From: a virus
Lineage: Duplodnaviria; Heunggongvirae; Uroviricota; Caudoviricetes
Length of the DNA stretch: 14,279 nt
Strand: one strand, 5' to 3'
Virus record (IMG/VR): IMGVR_UViG_3300029079_000040
Part shown: positions 4,876 through 12,276 of the stretch, piece after piece
How the letters are laid out: every line of letters begins with the position of its first letter
How positions within the stretch are numbered: the first letter of the stretch is position 1
Made by a program: the position numbers and the translations under genes
Notes under the pieces: model-generated
Told to the model about the DNA's origin: nothing
Databases searched by the model: none
What the model saw: the letters and a program-made list of their open reading frames with translations, nothing else

Positions 4876-5341
4876 TGAAAATTCCTCAAGTTGGAGAGTT
4901 CTGGAACATTAAGGCGAGGTGGCAGTAATGCACCATCTGTAATCTTTTGATACTGACGTAATCGGGCCTGATGTGCAACGCCTTGCAAGTATGTAACTCA
5001 TTGAAAACGATCATTTTTATCTATTGACATCAAATGGCAAACTGTCATTGTGCGGCTATGGCAAGTGGCAAATGCTTATAAATCATATGGATATAAATAG
5101 TACAGAAAGAGTTGTTTTCTCTAGGATATGAGTATACGCCCAATGCTGATTGGTTGAATTTTGTTCTTGTTTTAAAGGGTAAGAGTTTAAAGTGTTGGCA
5201 GTGATGTATTGGATAGTTAGAATTGCTGTGGGTGCTTGAGGCTATCTGCCTCGGGCATGAACACCAAAGGTAGATAGAGAAAAGCCCCAGTTAACATTAC
5301 GCGTCCTGCAAGACGTTTAACATTAATCTGAGGCCATATCT

Positions 5342-5401
5342 ATGCGACACATAGAGATTAGCCTCTTACGGACCGAAAGGTCAAGGAGAAGCAGGCTATG
5401 A
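5342..5401 (+). CDS. Short leader ORF (19 codons) ending in ATGA overlap with the hok start; possible mok-like coupling frame
   Basis: ATG 5342 to TGA 5399-5401, overlapping hok ATG 5398-5400. By analogy to mok/hok translational coupling; weak. Confidence 0.25.
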   Translation: MRHIEISLLRTERSRRSRL

Positions 5402-5523
5402 AGCAGCAAAAGGCGATGTTAATCGCCCTGATCGTCATCTGTTTAACCGTCATAGTGACGGCACTGGTAACGAGGAAAGACCTCTGCGAGGTACGAATCC
5501 GAACTGGCAGACGGAGGCTCTGA
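5398..5523 (+). CDS. hokD: Hok/Gef-family type I toxin (HokD/RelF-like N-terminus), 41 aa as read; C-terminus diverges or is frameshifted
   Basis: Translation MKQQKAMLIALIVICLTVIVTALVTRKDLCEVRIRTG-RRRL. The first 37 residues match HokD/RelF as I remember it. AGGAG 9 nt upstream. Canonical Hok proteins continue ...QTEVAVFTAYEPEE; here the +1 frame reads QTEALIRRLLI. Confidence 0.65.
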   Translation: MKQQKAMLIALIVICLTVIVTALVTRKDLCEVRIRTGRRRL

Positions 5524-5605
5524 TTCGTAGACTACTAATCTGAGTAAAAGACCCAGCGGGGAAAGAACCACGCCGGGACTAGTTAATAAGATATTTATAG
5601 CGTGG

Positions 5606-5947
5606 CTATTCTTTTTTTGCGGTATAGACTTTTTCGCCTGAGAAGTCTGGAGCTACCCAAAAGTTAATATTAAACTGAGCATCATCGCTTAGTTCAACAC
5701 GGTGCCAGTATTGTGGTGGGCTTGTTGCAAAAGCGCCAGCATTAATGACTACTTTTATCTCCGGTTCAGTAGCATTCTCATCAGCAAAACCATAATATGT
5801 TACAGTACCTTCCATCACGCATAACTGTCCAAAAACACCTGCTGCTGTATTATGATGTGTTAATAACGCTGAAGGTACGTTCTCTTTTGTGAAGAACGGA
5901 GTTGAGCGTTTGATTACCCAGTCTTTAGGAATTCTCTTGTGTGTCAT
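5606..5947 (-). CDS. YeaR-like protein (DUF1971, tellurite-resistance-related family), 113 aa
   Basis: Track ORF 5606..5971; start preferred at MTHKRIPKDWVIKRSTPFF (ATG 5947) with GGGAGGTG 5 nt upstream. Aligns by eye with chromosomal YeaR (RSTPFW..., FNIDFFVAPE-like motif FNINFWVAPD). Confidence 0.7.
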   Translation of the reverse strand: MTHKRIPKDWVIKRSTPFFTKENVPSALLTHHNTAAGVFGQLCVMEGTVTYYGFADENATEPEIKVVINAGAFATSPPQYWHRVELSDDAQFNINFWVAPDFSGEKVYTAKKE

Positions 5948-5961
5948 AACCACCTCCCATA

Positions 5962-5986
5962 AAACATGCATTATAAATGCACCTTT
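5962..5986. promoter_or_regulatory. NsrR-box-like palindrome ATGCAT-TATAA-ATGCAC immediately upstream of the YeaR-like gene
   Basis: Sequence AAACATGCATTATAAATGCACCTTT compared with the NsrR consensus AAGATGCATTT-n-AAATGCATCTT (established for E. coli, including the chromosomal yeaR promoter). The match is judged by eye. Confidence 0.35.
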
Positions 5987-6314
5987 TTGAGGGTTATGTC
6001 AAGCTGTTATGAAACACATAATTGATATGTTGATTAGAGGAGAAGATAGAATCAATATGGTTGTTTTTCGTATAACTATTTGTTTTACTTTTAGTTTGTG
6101 CATTCTGTGTGTTAGGAATAACTTATTAAAGTTTAACTAAAAAATCTCGATATAGTCCGCATAGATTACTGTTACTGAATCTTATTGTGTGCATTAGTTG
6201 TGTTCTGAAATTTCAATTTAATTACTTATGATATATTTTTAACGATAAATGTTTTCCGGGTGAAAGACAGTGGGGGATGAGATAAGCAATATATCATTAA
6301 TCTTGATTATTTCC

Positions 6315-6376
6315 AGGATGCCTTTACTGTGCATATAAATAAATCATATACGCATCAAATAATGTAAAGGCATCCT
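6315..6376. repeat. Perfect 13-bp inverted repeat AGGATGCCTTTAC / GTAAAGGCATCCT separated by 36 nt of AT-rich sequence
   Basis: Read directly from the sequence (6315-6327 and 6364-6376). The loop contains TGTGCATATAAAT; the right arm is followed by TTTTAG. Confidence 0.9.
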
Positions 6377-6814
6377 TTTAGATATATCTTATCAAATGTT
6401 AATGATTTGAGTGGGAAACATGATTCCAGAAACTAATCATGCGGCTACTTTATAAAAATAATGCCCATATAAAACAGCCAGCGAAAAGGATTACGGATAA
6501 AAAAGGAGCGAGATGTGCATAGTTGTTATTTTCCATGTTTAACCACCTTAAATAATTGATGATGACGGGATGTGCATCTGTAATGCTTTTGTTGAAATGT
6601 TATGATAAAAAAGAACTTTTTCATAACATTAAAATGTAATTTATCTAATCGTTTTTAATAATAAGTGTTGTATTTCTATCCTTGTATCAGCTATTTGATA
6701 TGTAGTGTTTGTTCATGTTATGTGGAGCTTTACACCATAGCCAGTTTATTTATACTTTATTCGTCAGCCTGAACAACTGGCATCTGCTGCACTGCGCCAT
6801 CGAGAGATTGAGAA

Positions 6815-7414
6815 ATGGCGCATATACAACTGGTCAAACAAACCTCTTCTGGACTACTTCTCCCGGCGACGCCGGAGAGTTGCGATTTTTTGCATCAAAT
6901 CAAAATAGGCGAGTGGATACACGCAGACTTTAAGCGTGTGCGTAACTACGCATTCCACAAGCGTTTTTTCAAACTCCTGCAACTGGGATTCGATTACTGG
7001 ACTCCGGTCGGTGGGGCGATCACGCCTCGCGAACGAAAGCTGGTTTCAGGATTCGTTGATTACCTATGTGAATCAGTAGGCCGGGAACATACGCCAGCTC
7101 TGAGCGAAGCCGCAGAGCAATATCTGAATACAGTTGCGACACGCAGAACCCGGGATACGGCATTGCTAAAGTCGTTTGAGGCTTTCCGCGAGTGGGTAAC
7201 CATTCAGGCCGGATTTTACACCGAGCATCTTTATCCTGATGGTAGCCATGGGCGTCGGGCGAAATCCATCGCTTTTGCGAATATGGACGAAACCGAGTTT
7301 CAGCAGGTTTATAAATCTGTTCTGAATGTGCTGTGGAACTGGATTCTGTTCCGTAAATTTTCCTCTCCGGAACAAGTCGAAAATGTGACCGCGCAGCTGC
7401 TGGAGTTTGCGTAA
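6815..7414 (+). CDS. nin-region protein, DUF1367-like, 199 aa
   Basis: Track ORF. Position immediately upstream of the YbcO-like gene and Q; the family name is a recollection. The stop overlaps the next start (TAATG). Confidence 0.6.
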   Translation: MAHIQLVKQTSSGLLLPATPESCDFLHQIKIGEWIHADFKRVRNYAFHKRFFKLLQLGFDYWTPVGGAITPRERKLVSGFVDYLCESVGREHTPALSEAAEQYLNTVATRRTRDTALLKSFEAFREWVTIQAGFYTEHLYPDGSHGRRAKSIAFANMDETEFQQVYKSVLNVLWNWILFRKFSSPEQVENVTAQLLEFA

Positions 7415-10203: not shown

Positions 10204-10681
10204 GCAGAGTAACCGCGATTATCTCCGCTCTGGTTATCTGCATCGTCGTCTGCCTGTCATGGGGTGTTAATCATTACCGTGATAACGCCATCGCCTACAA
10301 AGAACAGCGCGACAAAAATGCCAGAGAACTGAAGCTGGCGAACGCGGCAATTACTGACATGCAGATGCGTCAGCGTGATGTTGCTGCGCTCGATGCAAAA
10401 TACACGAAGGAGTTAGCTGATGCGAAAGCTGAAAATGATGCTCTGCGTGATGATGTTGCCGCTGGTCGTCGTCGGTTGCACATCAAAGNNNNNNNNNNNN
10501 NNNNNNNNTCTGTCAGTCAGTGCGTGAAGCCACCACCGCCTCCGGCGTGGATAATGCAGCCTCCCCCCGACTGGCAGACACCGCTGAACGGGATTATTTC
10601 ACCCTCCGGGAACGACTGGTAATGATGCAGGCCCAACTTGAAGGTGCTCAGCAATACATAACCGAGCAGTGTTTAAAGTAA
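10200..10681 (+). CDS. Rz: Rz i-spanin; reading frame interrupted by a 20-nt N run, so coordinates are in window numbering
   Basis: N-terminal [96 protein letters not shown] matches lambda Rz. After the N run, the correct frame reads ...[57 protein letters not shown], stop at 10679-10681. Confidence 0.85.
10420..10622 (+). CDS. Rz1: Rz1 o-spanin lipoprotein embedded in the +1 frame of Rz
   Basis: AAGGAG 8 nt upstream of ATG 10420. [23 protein letters not shown]...[N run]...[37 protein letters not shown] matches lambda Rz1, with its lipobox LVVVGC and proline-rich region. Confidence 0.8.
10489..10508. other. Run of 20 N (assembly gap or masked bases) inside Rz/Rz1
   Basis: Literal n characters in the sequence. 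Comparison with lambda suggests the real content here is about 3 nt (CAG), not 20. Confidence 1.
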
Positions 10682-10818
10682 AATCTTAACTACAATATGA
10701 TTCATTTTGATGATTGTTTCATAAGGAACAGTGAAGTAAGATCTAAGAGGAGTTAAATTTTATACAGTATAATCATAATATTGCAGCAAGGTGGTTATAA
10801 TTGAAAGAATATTTAGAT

Positions 10819-12276
10819 ATGAATACATCTCATGTAAGAGTTGTTACTCATATGTGTGGGTTCCTGGTTTGGCTCTATAGTCTTTCAATGTTGCCACCAA
10901 TGGTTGTAGCATTGTTTTATAAAGAAAAAAGCCTGTTCGTTTTCTTTATAACTTTCGTTATATTTTTTTGCATTGGTGGCGGAGCGTGGTATACAACTAA
11001 GAAATCTGGCATTCAATTACGTACCCGTGATGGGTTTATTATAATTGTAATGTTTTGGATTTTGTTTTCTGTTATTAGTGCATTCCCTTTATGGATTGAC
11101 TCAGAACTTAATTTAACGTTCATTGATGCTCTGTTTGAAGGGGTTTCTGGAATAACAACAACAGGAGCAACTGTAATTGATGATGTTAGTTCATTACCTC
11201 GGGCATATTTGTACTATCGGTCACAGTTAAATTTTATAGGTGGTTTAGGAGTTATTGTTCTGGCGGTTGCTGTATTGCCATTATTGGGTATTGGTGGTGC
11301 AAAGCTTTATCAGTCAGAAATGCCGGGGCCATTTAAGGATGACAAACTCACTCCCCGCCTGGCCGATACGTCACGGACACTGTGGATAACTTATTCTTTA
11401 TTAGGTATTGCTTGTATTGTCTGTTATAGACTTGCAGGAATGCCTTTGTTTGATGCTATTTGTCACGGGATTTCCACAGTTTCGCTTGGTGGTTTCTCAA
11501 CTCATAGCGAGAGTATCGGATATTTTAATAACTATTTGGTTGAGCTGGTGGCTGGTTCTTTTTCCCTGCTATCGGCTTTCAACTTCACTCTTTGGTATAT
11601 TGTTATTAGCAGGAAAACGATAAAACCTTTAATCAGAGATATTGAACTTCGTTTCTTTCTGTTAATAGCCTTAGGGGTGATCATTGTTACCTCTTTCCAG
11701 GTCTGGCATATAGGTATGTATGACTTGCATGGAAGTTTTATTCATTCGTTTTTTCTTGCCAGCTCCATGCTCACTGATAATGGTTTAGCTACGCAGGATT
11801 ATGCAAGTTGGCCCACGCACACGATAGTGTTTTTGCTGTTGTCAAGTTTCTTTGGGGGATGTATAGGTTCAACTTGTGGTGGAATTAAGTCACTTCGATT
11901 TCTTATACTTTTCAAACAAAGCAAACACGAGATAAATCAGCTTTCTCATCCCAGAGCGTTGTTGAGTGTAAATGTAGGAGGGAAGATAGTTACAGATCGT
12001 GTAATGAGGTCTGTATGGAGTTTCTTTTTTCTTTATACTCTCTTCACGGTGTTTTTTATACTGGTGTTAAATGGTATGGGATATGATTTTCTTACATCAT
12101 TTGCAACAGTGGCTGCATGTATTAATAATATGGGATTAGGTTTTGGGGCTACTGCATCGTCATTCGGAGTGCTTAATGACATTGCAAAATGTTTAATGTG
12201 CATAGCTATGATTCTTGGTCGCCTTGAAATTTATCCTGTTATTATATTGTTTTCAGGTTTTTTTTGGCGCTCCTAA
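10819..12276 (+). CDS. trkG: TrkG, TrkH-family potassium uptake membrane protein, 485 aa
   Basis: Multi-pass membrane protein with repeated pore-loop-like GxG motifs. Sequence from MNTSHVRVVTHMCGFLVWLY matches Rac trkG as I recall it, and the position directly after Rz/Rz1 is the Rac arrangement. Track ORF starts at TTG 10801; the ATG at 10819 gives 485 aa. Confidence 0.85.
   Translation: MNTSHVRVVTHMCGFLVWLYSLSMLPPMVVALFYKEKSLFVFFITFVIFFCIGGGAWYTTKKSGIQLRTRDGFIIIVMFWILFSVISAFPLWIDSELNLTFIDALFEGVSGITTTGATVIDDVSSLPRAYLYYRSQLNFIGGLGVIVLAVAVLPLLGIGGAKLYQSEMPGPFKDDKLTPRLADTSRTLWITYSLLGIACIVCYRLAGMPLFDAICHGISTVSLGGFSTHSESIGYFNNYLVELVAGSFSLLSAFNFTLWYIVISRKTIKPLIRDIELRFFLLIALGVIIVTSFQVWHIGMYDLHGSFIHSFFLASSMLTDNGLATQDYASWPTHTIVFLLLSSFFGGCIGSTCGGIKSLRFLILFKQSKHEINQLSHPRALLSVNVGGKIVTDRVMRSVWSFFFLYTLFTVFFILVLNGMGYDFLTSFATVAACINNMGLGFGATASSFGVLNDIAKCLMCIAMILGRLEIYPVIILFSGFFWRS

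Follow-up and report, generated by a model that had tools for sequence, protein, structure and literature searches.

Why should a lambdoid prophage, in a region where genes are normally packed tightly, carry about 0.8 kb of DNA in which no gene is annotated? The question is raised by a 14,279-nucleotide stretch of viral DNA (IMG/VR record IMGVR_UViG_3300029079_000040, hereafter the window), in which positions 5,990–6,814 separate a leftward YeaR-like gene of the DUF1971 family from a rightward DUF1367 gene that opens the nin/Q operon. This gap is real, unannotated and AT-rich, and it consists of three modules set end to end rather than of a single exotic element. It is likely to mark a junction formed by recombination in the 'moron slot' of a Rac-like lambdoid prophage, at which three control or cargo modules (A, B and C) abut. 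A preliminary description of the DNA had overlooked both this mosaic of independently moving modules, treating the interval as one element, and a small protein gene on the opposite strand in its middle.

The G+C content falls to 28–33% in 300-nucleotide windows between 5851 and 6750, compared with 41–54% in most flanking genes, in agreement with the AT-richness reported earlier. No open reading frame (ORF) of the interval is longer than 43 residues, and no Pfam match is found in any of the six frames. At the reference locus, an identical stretch in Escherichia coli strain 50579417, no gene is annotated between DUF1971 and DUF1367, the two being separated by 867 bp without annotation. Likewise, three E. 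coli searches with more than 1,000 matching genomes placed no RefSeq annotation under the match among the matches listed. The earlier verdict of no convincing protein-coding gene therefore stands with respect to annotation, ORF length and Pfam, but it fails at 6450–6536, where a conserved 28-codon minus-strand ORF is preceded by a Shine-Dalgarno sequence. The names given to the flanks, a YeaR-like gene and nin genes, are correct in view of the DUF1971, NinB/Orf and Q-like assignments obtained from Pfam, PHROGs and the reference annotation.

The modular structure emerges from a megablast comparison of the gap with 5426 complete E. coli genomes, which returns two patterns: matches over the full length at 94–100% identity, and matches to the right 365 bp only (6449–6814) at about 76–78% identity. 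In loci of the second pattern, the DNA on the left is the 3' end of hokD, and both DUF1971 and the left half of the gap are missing. The left half (5985–6449) occurs always beside DUF1971, at 81–100% identity, in 465 of the genomes, its lowest identity values arising from a 56-bp indel (6257–6312) that separates the spacer variants. The small-gene module has three different left flanks and, in the metagenomic copy L311, a different right flank as well. Moreover, among loci fetched through the DUF1367 protein, other prophages have unrelated upstream DNA (a rem-like gene, for instance, can occupy the slot), and the final ~90 bp ahead of the DUF1367 start codon are common to all. Because the left half, the small-gene DNA and these last ~90 bp are distributed separately, the interval splits into three modules (Table 1), and much of it is non-coding because each module carries its own control DNA. 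The slot lies between hok/sok and the nin/Q operon, and three independent modules would have come to abut there. In two loci (L144 and L332), an insertion sequence lies between the small-ORF module and the nin/Q promoter, at the equivalent of window position ~6694.

Table 1. Features of the gap and its borders, with positions in the window
Feature	Position	Strand	Basis or remarks
Module A	5948–~6005	-	YeaR/DUF1971 promoter with predicted, near-consensus NsrR 11-1-11 operator; ~440 bp AT-rich spacer beyond
Module B	6449–~6670	-	Missed 28-codon gene with its own leader and presumed promoter
Module C	6729–6830	+	Sigma-70 promoter and two-hairpin leader before the DUF1367-DUF1364-Q operon
YeaR-like DUF1971 gene	5606–5947	-	Pfam DUF1971, E = 3.5e-26; 342-nucleotide coding sequence of the Prokaryotic Genome Annotation Pipeline (PGAP)
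Predicted NsrR-type 11-1-11 operator AAGGTGCATTTATAATGCATGTT	5963–5985	-	25.8 bits on NsrR weight matrix
-35 hexamer TTGACA of DUF1971 promoter	5997–6002	-	Read from sequence
AT-rich spacer travelling only with the DUF1971 cassette	6006–6449		465/5426 E. coli genomes, always in this context
Strong hairpin followed by TTTT	6315–6380	+	Perfect 13-bp stem, 36-nucleotide interior, -22.7 kcal/mol
Unannotated 28-codon gene, predicted product MENNNYAHLAPFLSVILFAGCFIWALFL	6450–6536	-	ORF and conservation
Shine-Dalgarno sequence AAGGTGG of the small gene	6543–6549	-	Read from sequence; 6 nucleotides upstream of the ATG
Imperfect palindrome/hairpin in presumed small-gene 5' leader	6596–6630	-	z = -4.1 and -4.4
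Most conserved non-coding block of module B, CATAACATTAAAATNTAATTTATCTAATCNNTTTTAATAATAAG	6620–6668	-	Nearly invariant between clades
Sigma-70 promoter TTTACA-16-TATACT of the DUF1367-DUF1364-Q operon	6729–6756	+	10/12 consensus matches
Hairpin 1 (HP1), stem GUCAG/CUGGC, loop CCUGAACAA	6763–6781	+	Covariation and RNAalifold
Hairpin 2 (HP2), UGCGCCAU (6793–6800) with AUGGCGCA (6815–6822)	6793–6822	+	Inverted repeat, 8/8 complementary
DUF1367 (NinB/Orf-like) gene	6815–7414	+	Pfam DUF1367, E = 3.5e-97; PHROG 319 NinB/Orf
Terminator-like hairpin and T6 inside DUF1367 codons 18–27	6866–6893	+	Only consensus terminator-like site in 5100–7000

Module B holds the overlooked gene. Its predicted product has a polar N-terminus of nine residues followed by a hydrophobic helix of 19, residues 10–28 being hydrophobic or small without interruption. 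The Shine-Dalgarno sequence reads AAGGTG in most variants and the weaker AAAGTGAG in the Qin-type clade; the divergent-clade version of the peptide is MENNKSAHYAPFLSVILFVLCCVWALFL, and the two clades share about 70–78% nucleotide identity. A DNA pattern that fixes 14 of the first 18 codons, leaving the last 10 codons and the stop free, retrieved 276 copies from viral, metagenome and genome collections, and every copy has exactly 28 codons plus stop. In a non-circular set of 47 loci, picked through the DUF1367 protein and the non-coding leader block only, the ORF is intact in all 47, with synonymous changes making up 11 of the 26 nucleotide changes where 20% would be expected (P = 0.007). Codon positions 1, 2 and 3 have 5, 7 and 11 variable sites, respectively, and the pairwise ratio of non-synonymous to synonymous substitution rates (dN/dS) is mostly 0.2–0.5 (range 0.09–0.73). 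Module B is present in 1170 of the 5426 genomes (22%), E. coli W included, and no annotation of the gene appears among the matches listed for these carriers, annotation pipelines having skipped it because of its size.

On the left, the module ends at the stop codon itself, with three unrelated sequences beyond it in different prophages; the right end is placed near 6668 because L311 is wholly unrelated beyond this point. Between these borders, module B would form a self-contained leftward unit composed of a promoter block, a leader of roughly 90 nucleotides with a hairpin, the Shine-Dalgarno sequence and the 28-codon ORF. The leader hairpin corresponds to the interrupted palindrome noted earlier at about 6597–6630, which proves real at 6596–6630, with arms 93% complementary and a folding z of about -4. 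It is the only helix that RNAalifold retains over 27 variants, its inner sequence differing between the two clades, and it is missing in L311, the most divergent copy. Upstream, the nearly invariant block at 6620–6668 presumably contains the promoter of the small gene, with weak hexamers TTATTA (6662->6657) and TACATT (6639->6634); no consensus-grade hexamers were found in the block, so that the promoter assignment is a putative one. A further small hairpin, CGTTT-TTAATAAT-AAGTG at 6650–6667, overlaps the presumed -35 and shows G-C / A-T / G-T alternation among clades (CGCTT/AAGCG, CACTT/AAGTG), the wobble pairs of the window version working in plus-strand RNA only.

What kind of product this gene encodes is suggested by its shape. 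Hydrophobic, single-helix and shorter than 30 residues, the peptide is built like enterobacterial type I toxins and small membrane proteins (Hok, Ibs, ShoB, ZorO, TisB, DinQ; YohP-like), and its gene shares with type I toxin genes a long structured leader, a position in a prophage by hok/sok and a history of being missed by annotation. Module B could accordingly be pictured as a complete type I toxin-antitoxin locus, in which a 28-residue membrane toxin is neutralised by a small RNA, antisense or divergent, along the lines of hok/sok, ibs/sib, shoB/ohsC or zorO/orzO. The toxin-like size, with one helix running up to the C-terminus, the long conserved leader with its hairpin, the hok/sok neighbour and the self-contained, mobile character of a module unseen by annotation fit such a locus, but we regard it as unlikely, because no conserved plus-strand promoter or terminator of an antisense RNA was found inside the module and the DNA past the stop codon varies by context, so that a 3'-overlapping antisense gene cannot belong to module B, although a weak or unconventional RNA gene is conceivable. 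The peptide is also almost devoid of charged residues and shows no Pfam or NCBIfam similarity to toxin families; its PHROG matches are at chance level. Among the small ORFs compared with these three collections no match was credible, the best being to an Rz-like spanin through a hydrophobic stretch (E = 0.009). The resemblance to type I toxins is one of form only. By analogy the peptide may possibly be toxin-like, and its sequence makes a prophage accessory one-helix membrane peptide the most likely product.

An equally improbable reading denies translation altogether and takes 6450–6670 to be conserved as a leftward non-coding RNA or as control sites at the DNA level, the open frame being incidental. 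With only two deep clades, few independent changes underlie the coding statistics; codons 19–23 show frequent non-synonymous changes, and the exact peptide is not in a collection of 15 billion proteins. Against this stand the frame, ATG, stop codon and Shine-Dalgarno sequence, retained in all 276 and all 47 copies, the absence of any indel over 87 nucleotides beside many in the non-coding flanks, the synonymous excess given above, amino-acid replacements that exchange one hydrophobic residue for another, and the lack of a stable conserved RNA structure over the ORF.

Module C, the second conserved element, is a leader that begins just downstream of the sigma-70 promoter. HP1 is placed at the predicted 5' end of the transcript and presents a loop whose core, UGAAC, is invariant across genera (usually as CUGAACA). 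HP2 encloses the Shine-Dalgarno region in a 14-nucleotide loop, and its 3' arm consists of the start codon and the five following bases. Leader loci in prophage regions of Enterobacterales were compared for Escherichia, Shigella, Salmonella, Citrobacter, Klebsiella, Kluyvera, Leclercia, Enterobacter, Siccibacter, Silvania, Atlantibacter, Pluralibacter, Pantoea, Erwinia and Serratia, with DUF1367 identity down to about 51%. In every locus of these roughly 15 genera, a -10 box is followed after 5–7 nucleotides by HP1, with a species-variable stem and the UGAAC loop, and then by UGCGCCA(U/C), complementary to the (A)UGGCGCA formed by the start codon and the next bases.

Covariation across an alignment of 27 leader sequences supports both helices. 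Specifically, 84% of alignment cells pair, compared with 24–38% when the partners are slid, and changes on both sides of a pair occur in 45 cells against 18 in shuffles, a value that none of 500 shuffles reaches. Four pairs of HP1 are changed on both sides in 5–13 of the 27 sequences, alternating among GC, AU, UA and CG (columns 9–25: UA 9, CG 7, AU 6, UG 4). In HP2, none of the 27 sequences breaks any of the six core pairs; CG->UA occurs in three sequences, GC->AU in one, and wobbles number three. RNAalifold predicts the two helices unaided. A covariance model built from the alignment matches the window at 6757–6830 (65.8 bits, E = 3e-21), finds exactly one copy per phage region, and also places the leader before a 91-residue ORF that precedes a ydfU-like gene and the Q gene in Qin-type prophages. 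Together, the compensatory changes and the fixed position relative to promoter and start codon identify a structured cis-regulatory 5' leader. The non-coding RNA proposed earlier as one possible content of the gap thus exists at 6763–6822 as a cis-acting leader of the nin/Q operon, but not as a free-standing small RNA. No Rfam family matches it: at the gathering score, Rfam 15 reports only sok in the window, outside the interval, and a permissive search of 5900–6900 gives four chance-level matches, none on the leader, so the covariance-model check suggested in the preliminary description brought no known family.

The homologue of this leader in E. coli K-12 provides transcript data. The covariance model locates it, at 36 bits (E = 2.8e-12), in the Qin prophage, where it is flanked by rem and ydfU and keeps the promoter-HP1-HP2 order. 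A reverse-strand start site at 1642655 (U00096.2) and a 123-nucleotide transcript listed as 'IGRSTe, ydfU-rem, 1642532-1642655', attributed to Raghavan 2011 and Conway 2014, are given in the supplement of PMC4681348. This mapped start agrees with the predicted one within 1 nucleotide, 7–8 nucleotides past the TACAAT box and at the foot of HP1. Moreover, a terminator upstream of ydfU is reported to rank with the strongest that depend on Rho in vivo (PMC9160355), and values for ydfU in the supplementary table of that study are much higher than those for rem, which we read as the response to impaired Rho. These data are consistent with a leader that is transcribed, poorly translated owing to HP2 and cut short, keeping Q off. 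Unlike the window leader, IGRSTe precedes an unannotated 92-residue ORF and ydfU instead of DUF1367. This 92-codon ORF of K-12 MG1655 (MARNAKYYNSDNSPVLACTHGRYSHAFKSEW..., at 1807–2085 on the minus strand of L352, NC_000913.3 1642500–1648500) fills the rem-ydfU 'intergenic' space and is conserved as the 91-residue ORF of Qin-type prophages (L086), where the same promoter and leader stand before it. As far as we found, the K-12 homologue is known in the literature as an anonymous transcript, with no description of its structure, distribution or family.

Together, these observations suggest how the leader may act. The strong rightward promoter would start transcription at the foot of HP1, and HP2 would pair with the start codon of the first nin gene and occlude it, so that the leader is poorly translated. 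The untranslated RNA would then end prematurely, through Rho or an early hairpin, and this truncation would keep the overlapping downstream genes, including that of the Q-like antiterminator, off until the leader is opened or bypassed. The invariant HP1 loop implies a specific partner and is likely the recognition site of the opening factor. The terminator-like hairpin inside DUF1367 lies about 105–130 nucleotides from the predicted start site, matching the position at which the short K-12 transcript ends. As a conserved attenuator it was rejected, the T-run being kept in the closest relatives only, and its function is for the same reason uncertain. A second CUGAACA hairpin near the late promoter was not found, nor does TGTTCAG, which would mark an antisense partner of the HP1 loop, occur on the plus strand anywhere in the window.

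Known phage leaders offer partial parallels. Like lambda nut boxB and HK022 put, the window leader lies just downstream of a phage promoter and upstream of genes leading to Q, and like boxB, HP1 is a promoter-proximal hairpin with an invariant loop and a covarying stem. In contrast to boxB, with its 5-bp stem and GNRA-like pentaloop, the HP1 loop has 7–9 nucleotides (CUGAACA or, in the window, CCUGAACAA) and so falls outside the boxB definition, and unlike a lambda-type nut site, the leader shows by eye no boxA-like CGCUCUUA between promoter and HP1. The enclosure of the start codon in HP2 argues for translational control rather than for modification of RNA polymerase. Another parallel is provided by start-codon-occluding leaders with Rho-dependent polarity, in keeping with the Rho-dependent terminator reported upstream of ydfU at the K-12 homologue. 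It is conceivable, though we hold it only tentatively, that the leader represents a previously undescribed class of prophage riboregulator gating the late-gene activator Q and, separately, that the 28-residue peptide represents a new family of small prophage membrane proteins or toxins.

Module A, at the left edge, bears out the earlier suggestion of regulator-binding DNA, in that a predicted NsrR-type operator and the promoter of the YeaR-like gene occupy 5963–6002. The gene starts at the ATG at 5947 chosen by PGAP, preceded by the Shine-Dalgarno sequence GGAGGTGG; a longer ORF from 5971 was rejected as the true gene, given the PGAP start and the NsrR box falling within that ORF. The weight matrix was built from 26 distinct 11-1-11 sites of E. 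coli CFT073 (PMC5320621 Table 4, whose 27 rows include one duplicate sequence). These training sites score 10.1–29.7 bits with a median of 17.5, and only ytfE exceeds the 25.8 bits of the window site; shuffle maxima are 21.5 bits (500 shuffles of the gap) and 19.4 bits (200 shuffles of the whole window). On the coding strand, TTGACA (6002->5997) is followed by 17 nucleotides, the NsrR box (5985->5963), a further 15 nucleotides and the ATG, with TATAAT (5975->5970) at the centre of the box, which overlaps the -10 region. The site is thus an 11-1-11 inverted repeat on the matrix that lies over the core promoter, as in the NsrR-repressed E. coli promoters of ytfE, hmp, ygbA and yeaR-yoaG; it reads AAGGTGCATTT-A-TAATGCATGTT, compared with AAGGTGCATTTATATTACAACTT at ygbA and AAGATGCATTTAAAATGCATCTT at ytfE, and the gene downstream is a YeaR homologue.

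Conservation of the box reinforces this assignment. All 26 distinct prophage variants retain it at 16.7–26.9 bits, and chromosomal DUF1971 relatives of other bacteria have it at 27–28.4 bits and at an unchanged distance from the start codon. In the relatives L279, L350 and L351, TTGACG or TTTACA is followed by 17 nucleotides and the NsrR box, with about 20 nucleotides to the ATG. The yeaR gene is an established NsrR target and one of the genes most induced by nitrate or nitric oxide in CFT073 (PMC5320621). From the operator and its placement we infer that the prophage copy is likewise repressed by NsrR and inducible by nitric oxide: the YeaR-like gene would have arrived with a yeaR-type promoter whose -10 region lies inside the operator, and NsrR would hold it off until nitric oxide damages the NsrR iron-sulphur cluster. 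In contrast to the chromosomal promoters, the predicted operator sits on a prophage moron, and unlike its two closest chromosomal relatives, which have a Fur-box-like palindrome, the window promoter has no recognised NarL or Fur site. The palindrome, GATAATGAGATTTATTATC, lies just upstream of the -35 at about 225–245 in L350 and 150–170 in L351, and the prophage copy lacks it; it agrees at 16 of 19 positions with what we take to be the Fur-box consensus.

The remaining DNA of the left half would have come along with the YeaR-like gene as ~440 bp of AT-rich spacer. No homologues were found outside the DUF1971 cassette, and the spacer has no Pfam or Rfam match. A donor was sought through DUF1971 relatives, the closest of which (82–83% identity) have unrelated upstream DNA except for the promoter and NsrR box. 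At 30% G+C, the interval as a whole could plausibly be silenced by H-NS. The conspicuous feature of the spacer is the palindrome at 6315–6376 that had been noted earlier and that proves real, with perfect 13-nucleotide arms (6315–6327/6364–6376), six G-C pairs in the stem and a folding z of -5.6 on the plus strand, where none of 200 shuffles folds as well, and -6.7 on the minus strand. With its U-run, this hairpin probably stops rightward transcripts, as far as the sequence indicates. A consensus terminator scan made no call at 6315–6380 because the loop exceeds 8 nucleotides; this, together with variant mismatches that lack compensation, renders the terminator assignment tentative. A second palindrome of the preliminary description, CATGATT-N9-AATCATG at 6419–6441, is present in the sequence but folds no better than shuffles (z -0.7 and -1.1).

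The same hairpin could instead end a trans-acting small RNA on the plus strand that starts near 6240, downstream of CTGAAA-16-TATGAT (6205–6232). This is improbable, more so than either alternative for module B. The idea draws its appeal from the promoter-like site, which matches at 9 of 12 positions and precedes a highly stable hairpin and U4, but such sites occur at chance level in this AT-rich DNA (five found, 6.4 expected), 56 nucleotides are deleted in most carriers (307 of 465 genomes lie in the 80–90% identity band, 56 bp shorter among the matches listed), the hairpin mismatches arise without compensation, Rfam gives no match, and the confinement of homologues to the DUF1971 cassette leaves none on which a structure could be assessed. 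Coding capacity was considered as well. The 43-residue plus-strand ORF at 6009–6140 was rejected as a gene on account of poor Shine-Dalgarno spacing and an unconserved stop (48 residues in most variants), and the 15-billion-protein collection holds only a near-identical E. coli cluster for it.

Recurring GTGCAT motifs had also been pointed out. They are present, but at 6098, 6189, 6515 and 6572, 1–4 nucleotides from the positions first given, and a fifth copy lies at 6329; all five are on the plus strand and always read TGTGCAT, three of them within the spacer. None of 2000 local dinucleotide shuffles reaches five copies, any 7-mer doing so in 6 of 500 controls, and no enrichment is seen over the whole window. 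Several copies are mutated or missing in homologous prophages. As extra NsrR half-sites the copies were rejected, none being among the best-scoring half-sites or conserved, and minus-strand ORFs starting at the copies (TGTGCAT = ATGCACA) were rejected for want of a Shine-Dalgarno sequence. The repeats are probably without function. A direct repeat, CGAGATGTGCAT / CGGGATGTGCAT (6509–6520 and 6566–6577, 57 nucleotides apart), has its first copy within the small ORF and its second within the leader of that ORF; the divergent clade lacks it.

The two other contents first proposed, a decayed gene and an origin-like element, are very improbable: AT-richness and many stop codons in a normally tightly packed phage region would suit them, but six-frame translation gives no Pfam match, the homologous DNA of more than 1,000 genomes contains no longer ORF or annotation among the matches listed and no homologous locus with an intact ordinary gene was found, chromosomal DUF1971 relatives have unrelated DNA on their upstream side, and the direct repeats amount to one 12-nucleotide pair rather than an array of iterons.

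The surroundings of the gap are those of a Rac-like lambdoid E. coli prophage, as judged from the annotated gene order in strain 50579417, which runs ydaS-like, ydaT, ydaV, DUF1627, DUF977, KilA-N, Hok and the leftward DUF1971, then, past the gap, DUF1367, DUF1364, DUF1133, holin, lysozyme, spanin and trkG. DUF1367 opens a run of three genes with overlapping stop and start codons; in PHROGs the second belongs to the HNH-type endonucleases (PHROG 131) and the third, DUF1133, to the Q-like antiterminators (PHROG 753). Directly left of the YeaR-like gene lies a complete hok/sok type I toxin-antitoxin locus (5230–5523; Hok coding sequence 5398–5523), whose sok antitoxin RNA is recognised by Rfam at 5230–5400 (101.5 bits); in other prophages hokD directly adjoins the small-ORF module. 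A run of 20 N at 10489–10508, in the lysis-gene region, indicates that the window sequence is masked or gapped there. The potassium transporter gene trkG (10801–12276, G+C 31–43%) lies beyond the lysis genes, the position it has in K-12 Rac, and has the look of a further cargo insertion. K-12 Rac lacks the whole interval region and so provides no data on it.

Several points weigh against the three-module reading and the roles assigned within it. About 300 bp (6006–6314) are left without explanation. At the 6315–6376 hairpin, the interior is unusually large, only four U residues follow, and sister variants carry uncompensated mismatches in mid-stem. In module A, 21 nucleotides separate the perfect -35 and perfect -10 hexamers of the DUF1971 promoter, which makes its exact -10 uncertain. 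In module B, the peptide has no credible Pfam, NCBIfam or PHROGs match, its exact look-up among 15 billion proteins gives nothing, and the searchable literature does not mention it. Some 15 protein variants are known; with so few variants and no relatives, the coding signal (P = 0.007) is moderate, not overwhelming. Judged against the consensus, the small gene has a weak presumed promoter, and the module brings no terminator with it. In module C, HP1 of the window has a weak stem of 5 bp that includes a G-U pair, and folding of the single sequence favours a different pairing. The mapped start and short transcript come from the K-12 homologue rather than from the window prophage, the Q gating model rests on K-12 Qin, whose first gene differs from that of the window, and the offset between K-12 genome versions, which we take to be 1975–1976 bp, is good to about 1 nucleotide.

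Two parts of this locus merit follow-up, the widespread unannotated small gene and the conserved leader upstream of Q. The small gene is a concrete case of a widespread small protein that has never been annotated, present in over a fifth of complete E. coli genomes. If the NsrR operator acts as predicted, host nitric oxide would turn on a prophage cargo gene through module A. Whether cryptic or active, a lambdoid prophage must keep Q, and hence lysis, silent, and for phages that lack an N/nut system we know of no account of nin/Q operon control. A leader that couples Q expression to translation of the first nin gene is a testable mechanism, and such coupling would account for the strong Rho-dependent terminator reported upstream of ydfU in K-12 Qin. 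If the riboregulator reading holds, a phage or host factor at the HP1 loop would toggle the leader between an untranslated, Rho-terminated state and a translated, read-through state, making it an N-independent counterpart of the lambda nut/N step. More generally, what seems an 'unusual gap' in a phage genome can be nothing more than several control regions set end to end by modular exchange.

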